The position numbers and the translations under genes were made by a program. Source: a virus (Duplodnaviria > Heunggongvirae > Uroviricota > Caudoviricetes). Taken from it: 9,989 nt of DNA. Positions 1 through 9,206 of this stretch are shown here, piece by piece (positions within the stretch are counted from its first letter, which is position 1; each line of letters opens with the position of its first letter). Location of the stretch: the IMG/VR virus record IMGVR_UViG_2562617151_000006. One strand, 5' to 3'. The notes beneath the pieces are model-generated. The model had not been told where the DNA came from and did no database searches. It was given only the letters and a program-made list of their open reading frames with translations.

Positions 1-1284
1 TTACAGACTTCTGGAAGGTTGCGCAGCTCTTACAACACGCGGTTGATCTTCCGCAGCGTCTTCCAGCGCACTTAAATCACGGTCTTTCACCTCTGGCATT
101 TTCAGCGCAGAGATTAAACCAATCACTGAATATGCCATGATCATAATGGCGATCGGATACCAGGATTCCGTCATGGTGCAGAAAATACCCGCCAGGATAG
201 GACCAAAACCGGAAGCGATAAGACCACCAATTTCTTTAGAAATAGCCATCCGGGTAAAGCGGTTTTTACAGCCGAACATTTCTGCCATGGTAATGTTTTC
301 CAGAGCAAATAATCCCAGCACCGCACAGTTATGAATCACAATCAGTGCAACCATAATGGTGCTCGGGGCATAGCTTTTATCTACAATGATAGAAAGCATT
401 GGCCATGCCAGCACAATCGCGGAGGTATTCATAATAATATACGGGATCCGGCGACCAATTTTATCGGATAACCAACCAAGGAACGGAATGGTCATAAAGC
501 CGAGAATCGAACTGATCATCAATGCATCTGTTGGAATTGCTTTGTTAAACAATAACGTCTGCACTAAATAGCCTGCAAGGAAAGTCTGAATTAACCCGGA
601 GTTACCCGCCTGACCAAAACGCAGCCCTGTTGCCAGCCAGAAGGATTTGCTCTGGAACATGCTACCAGCAGGTGCAGGTTTTGCTGTCGGTTGGTTACTG
701 TCGTTAACCTTCTCAAAGACCGGGCTTTCTTTCAGATTCATACGCAACCAGATAGCAAAGACCATCACGACAACACTCGCCAGGAACGGTATACGCCATC
801 CCCACGCCAGCAGTTCCTCTTTACTGAGAATGAAGAACATAAAGGCCCAGATTGCCGTTGCGCTCAAGGTTCCGCAGTTAGTTCCCATAGCCACAAATGA
901 GGAGATAATTCCGCGCTTACCTTTTGGCGCATATTCCGCCAGCATCGTACCGGCACCGGAAATTTCCGCACCTGCACCCAACCCCTGAATAATACGCAAC
1001 GTCACCAGCAAGATGGGTGCAAAAACACCAATCTGTGCATAGGTCGGTAACACACCAATTAAGGTGGTACAGATCCCCATCATGGTGATGGTAATAAAGA
1101 GCACTTTTTTACGCCCTATTCTGTCGCCCATTTTGCCGAAAATAAATGCTCCGACAATACGCGCCACATAACCTGCACCGTAGGTTCCCATTGCCAGAAT
1201 TAACGCCATTGCCGTTGATGATTCAGGAAAAAATATTTCATGAAACACTAACGCTGCGCCGAGCGAATATAACTGGAAATCCAT
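1..1284 (-). CDS. ydfJ: MFS metabolite:H+ symporter family transporter (YdfJ-like), complete at the 3' end but apparently lacking about 30 N-terminal residues
   Basis: 427-aa minus-strand ORF with multiple hydrophobic segments and MFS-type motifs (GDRIGRKK after TM2, WGWRIPF mid-protein). The N-terminus MDFQLYSLGAALVFHEIFFP aligns with the W[FY]DF..Y..FFP region that lies about 30 residues into paralogs ShiA/KgtP/ProP (recalled). Stop codon is at window positions 1-3. Confidence 0.85.
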   Translation of the reverse strand: MDFQLYSLGAALVFHEIFFPESSTAMALILAMGTYGAGYVARIVGAFIFGKMGDRIGRKKVLFITITMMGICTTLIGVLPTYAQIGVFAPILLVTLRIIQGLGAGAEISGAGTMLAEYAPKGKRGIISSFVAMGTNCGTLSATAIWAFMFFILSKEELLAWGWRIPFLASVVVMVFAIWLRMNLKESPVFEKVNDSNQPTAKPAPAGSMFQSKSFWLATGLRFGQAGNSGLIQTFLAGYLVQTLLFNKAIPTDALMISSILGFMTIPFLGWLSDKIGRRIPYIIMNTSAIVLAWPMLSIIVDKSYAPSTIMVALIVIHNCAVLGLFALENITMAEMFGCKNRFTRMAISKEIGGLIASGFGPILAGIFCTMTESWYPIAIMIMAYSVIGLISALKMPEVKDRDLSALEDAAEDQPRVVRAAQPSRSL

Positions 1285-2619: not shown

Positions 2620-3210
2620 ATGTCTCGAATTTTTGCTTACTGTCGGATATCAACGCTGGATCAGACCACCGAAAATCAACGCCGGGAAATCGAAAGTGCA
2701 GGTTTTAAAATCAAACCTCAGCAAATAATCGAAGAACACATTAGCGGCTCAGCAGCAACCAGTGAGCGTCCTGGTTTTAACCGGTTGCTTGCTCGCCTGA
2801 AATGTGGTGATCAATTGATTGTGACAAAACTGGATCGCCTTGGTTGTAATGCAATGGATATCAGGAAAACAGTGGAACAACTGACCGAAACAGGTATCAG
2901 AGTGCATTGCTTAGCATTGGGGGGCATTGACCTGACCAGTCCAACAGGAAAAATGATGATGCACGTAATTTCAGCAGTCGCTGAATTTGAACGAGACCTT
3001 TTACTTGAACGCACTCATTCCGGGATAGTAAGAGCCCGCGGCGCAGGGAAACGTTTTGGTCGACCACCTGTGTTAAATGAAGAACAGAAACAGGTGGTAT
3101 TCGAACGAATTAAGTCAGGTGTAAGTATAAGTGCCATTGCCCGGGAATTCAAAACCTCGCGGCAAACCATTTTAAGAGCCAAAGCAAAACTTCAGACACC
3201 TGACATATAA
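2620..3210 (+). CDS. pinQ: Serine recombinase, Gin/Hin/Pin-family DNA invertase (196 aa)
   Basis: N-terminal catalytic motif YCRISTLDQ (active-site Ser), resolvase-type catalytic domain and C-terminal HTH ([16 protein letters not shown]). Size and sequence are typical of Pin/Gin invertases. Confidence 0.9.
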
Positions 3211-3307
3211 AAAATAATCTCGGTGTGAGATGCTTTACGTCTTCCAAGCCCCCTTCCTTGCCGTAAATGGAGAGATACATCTAATTATAGAATTTATATG
3301 TTTTACC

Positions 3308-3883
3308 CTACGGCAGTGCTGGCCATTCAATATCCGGTGCAGTTGATGTATCAACACGGTTCAGCAACACCCGATACTTTTTCCAGGCTTCCAGCAACAA
3401 GGTTTCTTCCTCCGTTGCGATCTCCAGATCCACAGCATCCTGAAGCGGCGCTATATGCTCACTGGCTATCTGCATCAGGCTGTTTTTTGTTTCTTCCGCC
3501 TCCCGGATCCGGAACAGTTTTTCTGCTTCCGTATCCTTCACCCAGGCTGTGCCGTTCCACTTCTGATATTCCCCTCCCGGCGATAACCAGGTAACATTTT
3601 CCGGTAACGGACCGAGTTCAGAAATAAATAACGCGTCCCCTGATGCCACGTCATAAACCGTTTTACCCCGATGATCTTCAACGAGATGCCACGATGCCTC
3701 ATCACTGTTGAAAACAGCCACGAAGCCTGCCGGAATATCTGGCGGTGCAATATCGGTACTGTTTGCTGGCAGACCTGTATGAGGCGGAATATATGCGTCA
3801 CCTTCACCAATAAATTCATTAGTTCCGGCCAGCAGATTATAAATTTTTATGGTCCGTGGTTGTTCACTCATTCTGAATGCCAT
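3308..3883 (-). CDS. tfaQ: Tail fibre assembly protein (lambda Tfa-like, 191 aa)
   Basis: 191-aa ORF starting [18 protein letters not shown]..., recalled as near-identical to lambda Tfa. Its ATG overlaps the stop of the upstream stf remnant (TAATG), indicating translational coupling. Confidence 0.9.
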
Positions 3884-4191
3884 TACGCAAGCCTCACAAT
3901 ATAGTTAAATGCGATGTTTTTGACGGTGTTTTCCGCGTTACCAGCAGCGTTAACGGTGATGGTATGTCCATGTGAACCAATCGCAACGGAGTGCGTATGA
4001 GCACCAATACCGACAGTATGTGCGTGTGCACCTGCGCTTGCAGCAGTACCCGATACAGAGTGCGTATGAGCGCCTGCAGAAGAAGTGTTAACACTGTATT
4101 TAGAATAATCAGGTGATCCACTTCCCGGAGCACCACTGGAACCACCTGAAACAAATGTCATCGAATGGGTATGTGCACCGGCTGTCCCCAT
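3883..4191 (-). pseudogene. stfQ: Side tail fibre (Stf) C-terminal remnant, about 100 codons
   Basis: ORF ends ...[30 protein letters not shown], matching the recalled lambda Stf C-terminus. Contains repeated GAHTHS/GAHAHT His-rich motifs. No credible N-terminal part; the frame breaks near 4158-4191. Confidence 0.8.
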
Positions 4192-4445
4192 GCATTTACC
4201 GCCCGGACTGTCAGCCTGTAATTTCCCAGCGCCAGCTGCGTGAAGCGATATGTGGTTTCCGTCGTCCGGGCCGTGCTGACCAACCGCTCACTGCCGTCGT
4301 CCGCTGCCACGGTCAGGCGAAGCATAAAGCTCACCCCCTTCACCACCTTCGGCGTGTCCCAGCGCGCCAGCACCTGGTATTCCCCGCTGTCTGCGGTGAC
4401 TTCTGCGGTCAGGTGCTGAACTGCTGGCGGCGTGACACCATTCAC
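4158..4445 (-). pseudogene. Internal fragment of a lambda J-type tail tip/host specificity gene (FN3-like segment)
   Basis: 95-codon frame with ...[66 protein letters not shown], recalled as an internal segment of lambda gpJ. Starts at a GTG that overlaps the nohA stop (GTGA). Different frame from the stf remnant. No real start or full-length gene. Confidence 0.65.
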
Positions 4446-4987
4446 CGTGCCGCTCTGGTCACCGTCAAAGTGCGCCCCGTTATCAGTTCATCCAGCGCGG
4501 CTGCTTTGTTCATGGCTTTGATGATATCCCGTTTCAGGAAATCAACATGTCGGTTTTCCAGTTCCGGAAAACGCCGCTGCACCGACAGGGGGATCCCGTC
4601 GAGAATACTGGCAATTTCACCTGCGATCCGCGACAGCACGAAAGTACAGAATGCGGTTTCCACCACTTCAGCGGAGTCTCTGGCATTTTTCAGCTCCTGT
4701 GCGTCGGCCTGCGCACGCGTAAGTCGATGGCGTTCGTACTCAATAGTCCCTGGCTGGAGATCTGTCTCGCTGGCCTGCCGCAGTTCTTCAACTTCCCGGC
4801 GCAGCTTTTCGTTCTCAATTTCAGCATCCCTTTCGGCATACCATTTTATGACGGCGGCAGAATCATAAAGCACCTCATTACCCTTGCCACCGCCTCGCAG
4901 AACGGGCATTCCCTGTTCCTGCCAGTTCTGAATGGTACGGATACTCGCACCGAAAATGTCAGCCAGCTGCTTTTTGTTGACTTCCAT
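4442..4987 (-). CDS. nohA: Terminase small subunit, lambda Nu1 homologue (181 aa) with a divergent C-terminal tail
   Basis: MEVNKKQLADIFGASIRTIQNWQEQGMPVLRGGGKGNEVLYD... (winged-HTH DNA-binding N-domain) is recalled as essentially identical to lambda Nu1 until the last 13 residues or so, which diverge at a deletion junction. K-12 synonym nohQ. Confidence 0.9.
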   Translation of the reverse strand: MEVNKKQLADIFGASIRTIQNWQEQGMPVLRGGGKGNEVLYDSAAVIKWYAERDAEIENEKLRREVEELRQASETDLQPGTIEYERHRLTRAQADAQELKNARDSAEVVETAFCTFVLSRIAGEIASILDGIPLSVQRRFPELENRHVDFLKRDIIKAMNKAAALDELITGRTLTVTRAAR

Positions 4988-5230
4988 TGTTCATTCCACG
5001 GACAAAAACAGAGAAAGGAAACGACAAAGGCCAAAAAGCCCGCTTTCAGCACCTGTCGTTTCCTTTCTTTTCAGGGGGTATTTTAAATAAAAACATTAAG
5101 TTACGACGAAGAAGAACGGAAACACCTTAAACCGGAAAATTTTCATAAATAGCGAAAACCCGCGAGGTCGCCGCCCCGTAACCTGTCGGATCACCGGAAA
5201 GGACCCGTAAAGTGATAATGATTATCATCT
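4988..5230 (-). other. Lambda-type cohesive end site (cosB with R1/R2/R3 and I1, cosN, cosQ-side flank)
   Basis: Reverse complement of 5165-5176 is GGGCGGCGACCT, the lambda 12-nt cohesive end. Flanks read (rc) ...CCGACAGGTTACG|GGGCGGCGACCTCGCGGGTTTTCGCTATTTATGAAAATTTTCCGG..., matching the recalled lambda ends. Nu1-binding R elements at 5012-5026, 5053-5067 and 5110-5126 (CGTTTCC cores); AT-rich IHF-like segment at 5078-5100. Confidence 0.8.
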
Positions 5231-5375: not shown

Positions 5376-5609
5376 ATGTCAACGAAGAACAGAACCCGCA
5401 GAACAACAACCCGCAACATCCGCTTTCCTAACCAAATGATTGAACAAATTAACATCGCTCTTGAGCAAAAAGGGTCCGGGAATTTCTCAGCCTGGGTCAT
5501 TGAAGCCTGCCGCCGGAGACTGTGCTCAGAAAAAAGAGTTTCTTCTGAAGCAAACAAAGAAAAGAGTGACATTACTGAATTGCTCAGAAAACAGGTCAGA
5601 CCAGATTGA
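5376..5609 (+). CDS. ynfO: Small ribbon-helix-helix-like protein (YnfO/YlcI family, DUF3950), 77 aa
   Basis: Basic N-tail, then a beta-strand-like RNIRFP followed by two predicted helices (NQMIEQINIALEQ; NFSAWVIEACRRRL), the typical RHH pattern. Position between cos and the lysis cassette matches the recalled Qin ynfO. Confidence 0.7.
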   Translation: MSTKNRTRRTTTRNIRFPNQMIEQINIALEQKGSGNFSAWVIEACRRRLCSEKRVSSEANKEKSDITELLRKQVRPD

Positions 5610-5666
5610 AGCAATTTAGATAATCGTGCAGACTACGCCCCCTCATATCACATGGAAGGTTTATCT

Positions 5667-6077
5667 ATGGATCAGGTAGTCATTTTTAAACAAATATTTG
5701 ATAAAGTTCGAAACGATTTAAACTATCAATGGTTTTATTCTGAGCTAAAACGTCACAATGTCTCACATTACATTTACTATTTAGCCACAGAGAATGTTCA
5801 TATTGTATTAAAAAATGATAATACAGTGTTATTAAAGGGCCTAAAAAACATTGTGTCTGTCAAATTTTCAAAGGATAGGCATCTTATAGAAACGACCTCT
5901 AATAAGCTGAAATCCAGAGAGATCACATTTCAGGAATACAGAAGAAACCTTGCTAAAGCAGGAGTTTTTCGGTGGGTTACAAATATCCACGAACAAAAAA
6001 GATATTACTATACCTTTGATAATTCATTACTATTTACTGAAAGCATCCAGAAAACTACACAGATCTTACCACGCTAA
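5667..6077 (+). CDS. ydfO: DUF1398 family protein (YdfO/YbcV-like), 136 aa
   Basis: ORF track 5652-6077. Preferred start is ATG 5667 ([10 protein letters not shown]...) with GGAAGG 7 nt upstream. Lies 57 bp downstream of ynfO on the same strand. Recalled as YdfO. Confidence 0.8.
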
Positions 6078-6228
6078 ACCATAACGTCCGGCTTCTCTCA
6101 CTCCTGAGCCGGACTGCATTGGTTTAATAAAAACCATCAACAATTGTGATTTAGATATTCGGAACCATTCAAATATAACAAAACCCCGTAAAAACGAGGT
6201 TTATGGATAAATTTTATTATTGAATACA

Positions 6229-6402
6229 TCAGATTAAATTAATCTTGACATCATAGCTTTCAAGACCCGTCATTTTTTCCCGTGCGGTAAACTGAATACT
6301 GGTAACTTCTTTCCCGGTCTTTTTCTTAAGTTCAATAATTTTTTTTGTTATATATTCAGAAATATCTGCTTCTGCTTTTGTTTTTAAGTTTTCAATATTC
6401 AT
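6229..6402 (-). CDS. gnsB: GnsB, small protein (57 aa), multicopy suppressor of secG null (Gns family)
   Basis: Minus-strand ORF MNIENLKTKAEADISEYITKKIIELKKKTGKEVTSIQFTAREKMTGLESYDVKINLI, translated by hand. Below the ORF track size cutoff. Recalled as GnsA/GnsB family. Confidence 0.75.
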   Translation of the reverse strand: MNIENLKTKAEADISEYITKKIIELKKKTGKEVTSIQFTAREKMTGLESYDVKINLI

Positions 6403-6573
6403 CATTTCCTCTTTTAGTCTGTTATGACTTTCCAGTTACACAGTAAGTCGATTATATGGTGCAAACGTGTAAAAGATAAGATGAAACATCGCAATAATCA
6501 ACATACGATAGTCTAAATTTTACACAAACAGACAAAGAGAATTTTCCTGAATTATCAATGCAATAGCATCAAA

Positions 6574-6729
6574 TCAACTCAAGAGCCTTATTGCTGCTTC
6601 CAGAATTTCTTCTGAAGTAACATGTCGATCCGCGGCTACATAAATGACTTTATGATCTCCGGTCAGAGATGGAAACCCTGCGGCCATTACAGTAAGGTGT
6701 GTTTTTTCGCCATTTGGATATTCACGCAT
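6574..6729 (-). CDS. ynfN: Small cold-shock-inducible prophage protein YnfN (51 aa from the preferred start)
   Basis: ORF track gives 6574-6846 (90 codons). Preferred start is ATG 6727-6729 (MREYPNGEKTHLTV...) with GGAG upstream. A terminator T-tract overlaps the far-upstream start at 6846, arguing against the long form. Start is uncertain. Confidence 0.55.
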   Translation of the reverse strand: MREYPNGEKTHLTVMAAGFPSLTGDHKVIYVAADRHVTSEEILEAAIRLLS

Positions 6730-6845
6730 GATGGTGTTAACTCCAGTCATCGCTGGCACTACCACTGCTGGTTCAGAGTTAAAAAAAACTATGATTTTTT
6801 TCATGATGTTACCGTAGTATGTGAGTATCCATCGAATAGACACCA

Positions 6846-6868
6846 AGCAAAAAAGCTCCCGAAGGAGC
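6846..6868 (-). terminator. Rho-independent terminator downstream of cspI (minus strand)
   Basis: Stem GCTCC (6855-6859), loop CGAA (6860-6863), stem GGAGC (6864-6868). On the minus strand it is followed by a TTTTTTGC run (complement of 6846-6854). Confidence 0.6.
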
Positions 6869-7075
6869 CTTCATTTTCACTTTTTTAAATCCAACGACAG
6901 ACGGCTGGCATTTAAGTATTGTGAAATATTATCAAATGTAATCATCATTGATTTACAAAAGATACATTTTGCCCCGAAAGGATTCATGTCAGAAACATCA
7001 AAAGATGATGTTCTATACTGGGAACCATGACAACACGGGCATCTAAAGTGAATATGGTTTGTAATATTGTCTACC

Positions 7076-7288
7076 TCAAAGCGCCACTACATGAACAGCG
7101 GCAGGACCTTTAGGTCCGTTCTCAATACCAAATTCAACTTCCTGATTCTCAGTTAATGTTTTGAAATCGTTGCTCTGAATTGCTGAGAAATGGACAAACA
7201 CATCTTTGCTGCCATCTTTCGGCGTGATGAAACCAAAACCTTTTTCAGGGTTAAACCATTTCACTAAACCAGTCATTTTGTTAGACAT
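7076..7288 (-). CDS. cspI: Cold shock protein, CspA family (70 aa)
   Basis: [38 protein letters not shown]... carries the RNP1 (KGFGFI) and RNP2 (VFVHF) motifs of the cold-shock domain. AAGG Shine-Dalgarno upstream. Recalled as CspI of Qin. Confidence 0.9.
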
Positions 7289-7430
7289 AATTATTACCTT
7301 TTGAAGAAATTAGCCCTTGGGCAGAATGGTCCGAAAAAAAATATCAGAGAGAAAAACCAACAAGGAAATCTCAAGAGGTACAAATAATAAAATTATAACA
7401 ATGACTGCTTCAGATAAATTTGTAACAAAC
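7289..7430 (-). promoter_or_regulatory. Putative cspI promoter and long 5' UTR
   Basis: A perfect TATAAT on the minus strand (complement of 7392-7397) lies about 105 nt upstream of the cspI ATG, in an AT-rich region. CspA-family genes are known to have long structured 5' UTRs. Exact transcription start and any cold-box are not determined. Confidence 0.4.
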
Positions 7431-7650
7431 CAGAACACCATTAACGCATGATTAACCACCCATAGCAAGGATTACTTTTGTAAAGAAAAACACAGCAATG
7501 AAAGAATAGCTTTATTTATTAATAAAACGTGTCATTCTGATTAAGACCTTTTATCTTACCCTTAAGATTTCAGGAATTTTGGCTCATGGAAGAGTCCTTT
7601 TTATTTAAATTTTACATTCCGCGATGTAAATGTTCCGATTTAATATTACC

Positions 7651-8674
<1,024 letters not shown>

Positions 8675-8678
<4 letters not shown>

Positions 8679-8986
8679 AGATATTTATGATGAGGACGCT
8701 CGTGCTTATTGGCAGGATTTTCAATCTTAAAGGAGTACTGATGCTGCAGATAAGACTCAACTTTTTCTGACAATTTTTCTGCTACTTCCAGGAAGACTTG
8801 CCGGACGCTCCTTCTGGCTGCTGCCTCATAAAACTCCAGCGCAGCTCCTTCAACACGGTCCATGGCGACATCCAGGTCAAAAATTTCACCGTCAAAGCGT
8901 TCTTTGTCCTGTAAGGCTACAGTTACCGTAACTTTATTCTCAAAATTACGGACTCCTTTCACAACCAGTTCATAGTCTTGAGTCAT
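8675..8986 (-). CDS. ydfR: DUF1327 family protein of unknown function, located between holin and endolysin genes (103 aa)
   Basis: 103-aa ORF with no transmembrane segment, acidic and helical. Recalled as YdfR. Tightly packed: 4 bp after essQ, and its stop overlaps the rrrQ start. Confidence 0.8.
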
Positions 8987-8990
8987 TGGA

Positions 8991-9206
8991 TTACTCTCCT
9001 CTCGCAGCCTTACGCCTGTCTTCTTTAATCTTGAAATAAAGATTTGTCAGATACGTCAGCAGGCCAAAAACCAGGCTACCCAGCACACCGATTGCAGCCC
9101 ACTGTGACGGAGTTACTTTATCGAGTAACTGCAATGCCCAGAAACCAGCATTACCCGCCGATGTGCCATAGGCAACACCTGTTGTTAACTTATCCATTGA
9201 TTTCAT
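8991..9206 (-). CDS. essQ: Class II holin, phage 21 S21-like pinholin with dual-start motif (71 aa)
   Basis: [28 protein letters not shown]...[18 protein letters not shown] has two transmembrane domains, an MKSM dual start (Met1/Met4) and a charged C-terminus, matching the recalled S21 pinholin. The track's extension to 9281 adds an unlikely 25-aa N-terminal arm. Confidence 0.85.

Follow-up and report, generated by a model that had tools for sequence, protein, structure and literature searches.

The closest described relative of this locus is the right arm of Qin in E. coli K-12 MG1655, a cryptic prophage in which nohA, stfQ, tfaQ and pinQ (b1545-b1548) lie at ydfJ. In MG1655, Nu1 is cut near its 3' end and is followed by a truncated stf and then by tfaQ and pinQ. 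This arrangement contains one scar, which joins Nu1 nt 529 to the middle of stf and encodes a 320-aa StfQ, without any J sequence. The other reference is phage lambda, of whose Nu1, J and Stf the DNA analysed here keeps fragments only, together with an identical cos. The junctions that we report are not described in the general papers on Qin and on defective prophages that we consulted.

We analysed a stretch of 9,989 nt (hereafter, the window). It belongs to Qin, a lambdoid cryptic prophage that sits in ydfJ of E. coli, and represents the right arm of this prophage in a decayed state (Table 1). The identity of the window is based on the match of its ORF map and sequence to the RefSeq annotation of the identical sequence of FORC 064 and to positions 1,630,000-1,652,000 of MG1655. 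From 5' to 3', we found ydfJ', ynfT, ydfK, pinQ, tfaQ, a tail-fibre remnant, a J remnant and nohA, past which come cos, ynfO, ydfO, gnsB, ynfN, cspI, rzpQ, rrrQ, ydfR and essQ. The features that define Qin are all present: the insertion in ydfJ, the right end made of ynfT-ydfK-pinQ-tfaQ, and ynfO-ydfO-gnsB-cspI with the lysis genes left of nohA. This gene order is shared, with near-identity of sequence, by the Qin of MG1655 and by 99 other genomes. The MG1655 prophage occupies the same ydfJ locus, has the same flanking and internal genes and an intact cos, and its flanks are more than 99% identical to those of the window. Positions 3300-5200 (1,901 nt) recur at 100% identity over the whole segment in no fewer than 30 complete genomes, independent of each other and from diverse hosts, which excludes an assembly artefact. 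The RefSeq/PGAP annotation already treats the J and stf pieces as pseudogenes (the former as a 'J-related protein' pseudogene) and names the Nu1 ORF nohA.

Table 1. Coordinates of the features discussed in the text (positions within the 9,989-nt window).
Feature	Position	Strand	Basis or remark
ydfJ'	1-1284	-	then ynfT, ydfK
pinQ, serine invertase, intact, right end of Qin	2620..3210	+	ORF map, RefSeq annotation, Pfam
tfaQ, tail fibre assembly gene, intact	3308..3883	-	ORF map, RefSeq annotation, PF02413 (E = 2.4e-43)
stf remnant, 302 nt from the 3' end (codons 909-1007 and stop) of a side tail fibre gene encoding 1007 aa	3883..4184	-	
ATG ORF spanning junction 2, 102 aa	3883..4191	-	program ORF list; overlaps J frame by 34 nt
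GTG ORF in J frame, 95 aa	4158..4445	-	program ORF list
Junction 2, J to stf	4181..4184	-	4-nt microhomology CAGC
J fragment, codons 600-700 of the lambda tail tip gene J, in essence a single Ig-like domain	4181..4484	-	
nohA ORF, 181 aa	4442-4987	-	program ORF list
12-codon replacement tail of NohA, TGRTLTVTRAAR + stop	4442..4480	-	J sequence out of frame
Junction 1, Nu1 to J	4475..4484	-	crossover in GATA (4481-4484); C9 and lambda parents
Nu1-derived part of nohA, lambda Nu1 codons 1-169, 507 nt	4481..4987	-	lambda/MG1655 alignment, Pfam
cos, lambda-type, intact, upstream of nohA; cosN GGGCGGCGACCT at 5165-5176	5152..5176	-	

The three reading frames of the scarred region lie where a preliminary description of this DNA had placed them. 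At the DNA level, nohA is about 98.6% identical to the Nu1 gene of lambda through nt 507, with seven mismatches up to ...GATGAACTGATA (I169), and diverges beyond. The preliminary description was right that Nu1 is lambda-like and then diverges, but it put the limit at about residue 168, and the 13-residue tail that it called novel is a 12-residue tail encoded by the 39 nt that open the J fragment, in a frame other than that of J. The product retains a complete Nu1 domain (PF07471, positions 1-164 of 164; E = 3.9e-101), including the N-terminal cosB-binding region, as expected of a small terminase subunit. A functional terminase subunit is not what we found, however: the last 12 native Nu1 residues are replaced and the window contains no A gene. 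We considered dN/dS on Nu1 and set it aside, the seven differences from lambda (two of them non-synonymous) being too few and probably older than the decay.

The stop codon of nohA overlaps the start of the 95-codon frame as GTGA, which is visible in the sequence as had been stated. That this frame is an internal piece of a J-type protein also stands, yet the homology to J starts 39 nt upstream of the GTG, at position 4484. The translation from 4484 to 4158 (DNGAHFDGDQSGTVNGVTPP...RAVNAWGQ) corresponds to residues 600-700 of lambda J, with 90% amino acid identity (BLASTP E = 5e-66), and the frame extended to 4484 matches the Ig_J profile PF24421 (positions 1-90 of 104; E = 3.4e-36). The last eight codons of the GTG ORF (PVHIPIR and stop) are stf sequence read out of frame. 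Of a complete tail tip protein, which has about 1,132 aa and a receptor-binding domain at its C-terminus, these residues 600-700 are all that remains. Over its 302 nt, the stf remnant shows 100% identity to the 3' end of the intact 3,024-nt stf of strain C9. Its translation matches PF03335 and carries HxH-type fibre repeats, and the last 80 residues present 74% amino acid identity to lambda orf-314. A complete side tail fibre is composed of an N-terminal attachment domain, a shaft and an HxH tip, and only the last 99 of its 1007 codons are left here. The overlap of about 34 nt reported between the J frame and the frame for the end of Stf is indeed 34 nt. The ATG of the latter sits in J-derived DNA, and it exists only because the J allele of the window reads GCATGG, where C9 and lambda J read GCGTGG.

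The search with the stf piece returned full-length stf genes as well as genomes with the J-stf junction behind longer J fragments. Strain C9 (NZ_CP010129) has the same attachment context and right end as the window (stf 3' end, tfaQ and pinQ), but unlike the window it carries the complete Nu1-to-stf block at this ydfJ/pinQ/tfaQ position, spanning 22.5 kb from the start of nohA to the start of tfaQ: nohA, A, W, B, C, D, E, FI, FII, Z, U, V, G, T, H, M, L, K, I, J (3,399 nt), lom, stf (3,024 nt), tfaQ and pinQ. We used C9 as a model of the parent rather than as the ancestor. Its J allele differs from that of the window at about 20 of 304 positions, so that the deletion sizes given below hold only approximately for the actual ancestor; C9 also differs in its early and Q regions.

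At junction 1, the Nu1 parent reads ...GATGAACTGATA followed by CCGGGGTTG, the J parent ...CATCGTGGATA followed by ACGGGGCGC, and the window ...GATGAACTGATAACGGGGCGC. The microhomology around GATA extends to GATA[C/A]CGGGG (9 of 10 nt). In C9 (L007), the two parental sites are at 12157-12166 and 28781-28790, and 16,624 bp are lost relative to that block; in lambda, positions 694-697 are joined to 17302-17305, with 16,608 bp lost, and the J piece ends at 17602-17605. The deletion at junction 1 takes away the end of Nu1 (codons 170-181), all genes from A to I, and codons 1-599 of J. At junction 2, the J parent reads ...TGGGG(G/A)CAGC followed by AGGGCG, the stf parent ...GCTGCTTCAGC followed by CGGTGCACAT, and the window ...TGGGGACAGCCGGTGCACAT. 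A 60-mer centred on this junction matches J alleles identical to that of the window to position 4181 and intact stf alleles from position 4184, both at 100%. The parental sites in C9 are at 29081-29084 and 33835-33838, and the 4,754 bp lost comprise J codons 701-1132, lom, and stf codons 1-908 (90% of stf). The two losses add up to 21,378 bp, precisely the amount by which the C9 interval from the start of nohA to the start of tfaQ exceeds that of the window.

The alignments to lambda and MG1655 proposed in the preliminary description were thus mapped to the nucleotide, and the microhomology that it suggested looking for was found at both breakpoints. Its two deletions, one from terminase A through most of J and one removing the rest of J, lom and the 5' part of stf, were recovered against the C9 block. 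They are, however, adjacent and serial, neither lying within the other, and the word 'nested' does not apply. No IS element or IS end was detected at either junction in the ORF map or the annotation, and searches for direct or inverted repeats linking the junctions returned only chance-level short matches and the HxH repeat units within stf.

The comparison with MG1655 agrees with the earlier suggestion that the K-12 stf remnant is longer and that the window represents a distinct state of decay. In contrast to the single scar of K-12, the window has two, and it contains 304 nt of J that are absent from MG1655. Conversely, the Nu1 of MG1655 runs through ...GGGGTTGCTGAGTGAATATA, which is 22 nt (508-529) more than in the window. 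The stf of MG1655 is a different allele that cannot be aligned with the window between about 4085 and 4184. Judged from their sequences, the window and K-12 states are independent deletion products, since neither can be derived from the other by deletion.

We then counted genomes containing junction-spanning 60-mers among 5,426 complete E. coli genomes. The Nu1-stfQ junction of K-12 was found in 365 genomes, junction 2 in 91 and junction 1 of the window in 52, whereas a Nu1-J junction at about Nu1 nt 252, as in strain JNQH498, was found in about 26, and the Nu1-A' junction of strain 300709 in five. The state of the window occurs in about 1% of the finished E. coli genomes. Junction 2 is common to at least three upstream states, those of the window, 300709 and JNQH498, and the latter two strains also share with the window the J allele, which differs from the J of C9 and lambda at about 20 positions, and the tfaQ haplotype. 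Unlike the window, 300709 has kept fragments of A, W, B, C, G, T and H and 1.9 kb of J, and JNQH498, with less Nu1 and more J, has kept 1.26 kb of J. Because junction 2 and the J allele are common to strains with differing upstream states, the J-stf deletion would be older and shared, and the Nu1-J deletions would be later and independent. This order is read from the nestedness of the counts and from shared alleles, and homologous recombination between strains could spread a scar and blur it. A further Qin state was observed in strain 21EVA (Nu1-portal'-C-D-E'-stf').

The Nu1 side of junction 1 falls in a region where breakpoints recur. Across Qin, DLP12 and other lambdoid prophages, we count no fewer than eight independent fusions whose Nu1 breakpoint lies in nt 505-530. 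In Qin, CTGATA is joined to J at aa 600 in the window and to an internal part of A in 300709, CTGA is joined to the portal gene (B) in 21EVA, and nt 529 is joined to stf in MG1655. In other prophages, CTGATA is joined to a tail fibre gene in ZY22049, EC27 and N427, and CTGATACCGG to a tail fibre gene in VTB96935v; CTGATACC is joined to J both in a DLP12-like prophage of AH21 and in the DLP12 of NEBExpress (E. coli B). Several of these fusions came from probes anchored at that very spot, which introduces an ascertainment bias. A less biased sample (a 1,147-nt Nu1+A query, with 60 matches spread over 4,148 records) yielded the endpoints 828, 723, 514, 509, 507, 427 and 46, three of the seven distinct endpoints lying within 8 nt. 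Matches of the Nu1 query of the type '1-33, 100%' were tried as further breakpoints and rejected: since strain 98223, which was among them, has an intact Nu1-A, such matches can be counted as fusions only after reading the sequence.

The recurrent site follows closely on the end of the Pfam Nu1 domain, and it falls at, or slightly upstream of, the presumed ribosome-binding site and GTG start of gpA (lambda 711). The clustered deletions always retain the whole Nu1 domain and cos, and they lose the gpA-binding tail and the gpA start. Since the C-terminal region of lambda TerS is the part that binds TerL (PMC9611059), these NohA variants should still bind cosB but be blind to gpA. Secondary structure was considered as a cause of the cluster and rejected, the DNA folding no better than shuffled sequences on both strands (z = 0.40 and 1.50). 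PICI Rpp, which reportedly interferes with TerS, offers a parallel for a selective reading in terms of domestication or interference, which we consider unlikely. More specifically, the recurrence could reflect either selection for a domesticated, gpA-blind NohA that poisons the packaging of superinfecting lambda-like phages via cosB, or a site-specific fragility, and to this pair of explanations we attach little probability.

The explanation that very probably accounts for the whole region is an inert scar field of Qin produced by two serial microhomology deletions, with the K-12 state arising separately. The older event would have brought J codon 700/701 next to stf codon 908 through the shared CAGC, and a later, lineage-specific event would have linked codon 169 of Nu1 with codon 600 of J through the shared GATA (GATAxCGGGG). 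Head and tail genes totalling about 21.4 kb would thereby have been lost, leaving a NohA that is 12 native residues short at its C-terminus, two orphan ORFs (one for the Ig domain, one for the stf C-terminus) and intact tfaQ, pinQ and cos. The Qin of K-12 would stem from a deletion of its own, in a lineage whose stf allele differs. The prophage would be under no selection for morphogenesis, and the remnant ORFs would be by-products. As expected of microhomology deletions, the parents are unrelated beyond a few shared bases, and no mobile-element or recombinase site is found at the junctions. The 4-nt homologies point to RecA-independent slippage or illegitimate recombination as the possible mechanism; they are short, and slippage and end joining after a break would look alike in the sequence.

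A possible, although somewhat doubtful, variant is that junction 1 formed by a secondary deletion of about 4.2 kb in a 300709-like intermediate and not by a single 16.6-kb step from intact Nu1. Strain 300709, which agrees with the window in junction 2, J allele and tfaQ haplotype, has its Nu1-A' junction at the same GATA (CTGATA joined to AAGGGGC; A parent at 13641 of the C9 locus). Between that junction (CTGATAAAGGGGC) and the J site (GATAACGGGGC), 10 of 11 positions agree, compared with 9 of 10 for native Nu1 (GATACCGGGG), so that junction 1 could be a secondary deletion from such an intermediate; the predicted deletion in 300709 (L004) runs from 15524 to 19717, or 4,193 bp. However, both routes lead to an identical product sequence, the 300709-type junction is rare, and 300709 carries extra IS insertions and one J SNP that are absent from the window. 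Reuse of the Nu1 site moreover needs no intermediate, because many other independent fusions use it directly. The idea that the window is collinear with MG1655, derives from the K-12 state or is an assembly chimera draws on the near-identity of the flanks and can be set aside almost completely: it is contradicted by the Nu1 and J segments each present on one side only, by the stf alleles that cannot be aligned, and by the identical sequence in the independent finished genomes.

It is very unlikely that the remnants were domesticated and kept by selection, whether as an altered NohA, as a free J Ig-domain protein coupled through GTGA, or as a Stf C-terminal peptide acting with TfaQ. All three ORFs are open, nohA has its full Nu1 domain, Nu1 breakpoints recur just past that domain in many prophages, and the mapping of TerL binding to the lost C-terminal region would fit an altered function. 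The 100% conservation of the allele across diverse hosts is equally predicted by recent common descent, though, and the end of the J ORF and the start of the stf ORF consist of out-of-frame foreign sequence, in pieces that PGAP annotates as pseudogenes. Nor is Nu1 always kept, since other Qin states are cut to nt 252 and other prophages to nt 427 or 46. Deletion by PinQ acting on pseudo-sites, or an IS-mediated adjacent deletion, appears highly improbable. The invertase gene is intact and only 1 kb away, and IS elements are common in other Qin variants, but IS sequences and ends are absent from both junctions and the junctions are not linked by inverted or direct repeats. The Din-type core AAACCNNGGTTT, which we take to be the consensus of the crossover site, does not occur within 500 nt of either junction or anywhere between 2400 and 5030, where long inverted repeats were not found either, and its frequency in the whole window is at the chance level (6 found versus 6.6 expected). 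With a single tfa and a single stf tip, the region also differs from the invertible segments of the Din family (Mu G, P1 C and e14 P), where a pair of inverted crossover sites bounds alternative cassettes of stf C-terminus and tfa beside the invertase.

Two serial microhomology deletions in Qin amount to ordinary prophage decay, and the window is another allele of a well-known cryptic prophage, routine on its own. Its value is modest and lies in the fact that a single locus presents the block whole, in several partly deleted forms and in two end states, with breakpoints resolved to the nucleotide, forming a decay series of prophage erosion by serial short-homology deletions. The recurrent breakpoint at the 3' end of Nu1 is the sole mildly surprising element and, if it results from selection, it bears on whether noh genes are domesticated. 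K-12, the reference, shows just one among several outcomes reached independently, and a Qin that was intact, or at least less decayed, must have survived in the species beyond the separation of these lineages.

The left breakpoint of the truncation in Nu1 (nohA), the lambda small terminase gene, lies at a position that recurs among lambdoid prophages. Across Qin, DLP12-like and other lambdoid prophages, no fewer than eight deletion fusions of independent origin have a left breakpoint that falls in Nu1 nt 505–530. The sequences joined to it come from J (at three separate points), A, portal, stf and tail fibre (two cases). When sampling was less biased, nt 507–514 accounted for three of the seven distinct truncation endpoints among the matches listed. 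This clustering could reflect a hot spot, or it could mark a boundary set by selection.

Nu1 breakpoints and other features of Qin-locus and related prophages
Feature	Sequence	Position	Strand	Remark
Nu1 breakpoint	window	4475–4510		Nu1 nt 505–530
Nu1 breakpoint	L002 (MG1655)	about 5840
Nu1 breakpoint	L004 (strain 300709)	15520–15535
Nu1 breakpoint	L008 (other genome)	4025–4040
Nu1 breakpoint	L009 (strain 21EVA)	6025–6040
Nu1 breakpoint	L010 (other genome)	5028–5040
Nu1 breakpoint	L012 (other genome)	3003–3015
Nu1 breakpoint	L013 (other genome)	3003–3015
ATG of 102-codon Stf' ORF	window	4186–4191	−	within J-derived sequence
Complete lambda-type cos	window	5152–5176	−	upstream of truncated nohA
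Qin decay state	L009 (strain 21EVA)	5526–9083		Nu1-portal' fusion, C and D intact, E' joined to stf
Qin-locus prophage	L007 (strain C9)	NZ_CP010129 2322000–2358800

The ATG of the Stf' ORF is specific to the J allele of the window, which reads GCATGG where the J genes of C9 and lambda read GCGTGG. Relative to stfQ of MG1655, the stf tip contains a mosaic boundary (window 4085–4184): upstream of about 4085 the stf allele shared by the window and C9 cannot be aligned with the K-12 gene, whereas downstream the identity is about 95% and then about 100%. The 3' third of tfaQ (window 3308–3560) carries a cluster of about 12 SNPs that is common to the window and strain 300709 but absent from C9 and MG1655, which suggests that this tfaQ haplotype is recombined. 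Elsewhere in the window, the PGAP annotation of the identical sequence in strain FORC 064 presents gnsB (about 6229–6403) as frameshifted and ynfN (about 6575–6805) as a gene of 231 nt; its MG1655 counterpart measures 156 nt.

The cos site of the window has cosN (GGGCGGCGACCT), cosB and the right-end sequence of lambda (...CCGACAGGTTACG). Over 190 nt, it shows only about five mismatches to the left end of lambda. This near-identity indicates that the chromosome bears a potentially cleavable cos.

The Qin-locus prophage of strain C9 apparently retains a complete head-tail gene set; IS3 interrupts a lysis-region gene and the Q/blc region differs. In strain 21EVA, E' is fused to the final 132 nt of stf, and this Qin is a further independent decay state. 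Qin-locus prophages range from near-intact elements to K-12-like remnants.
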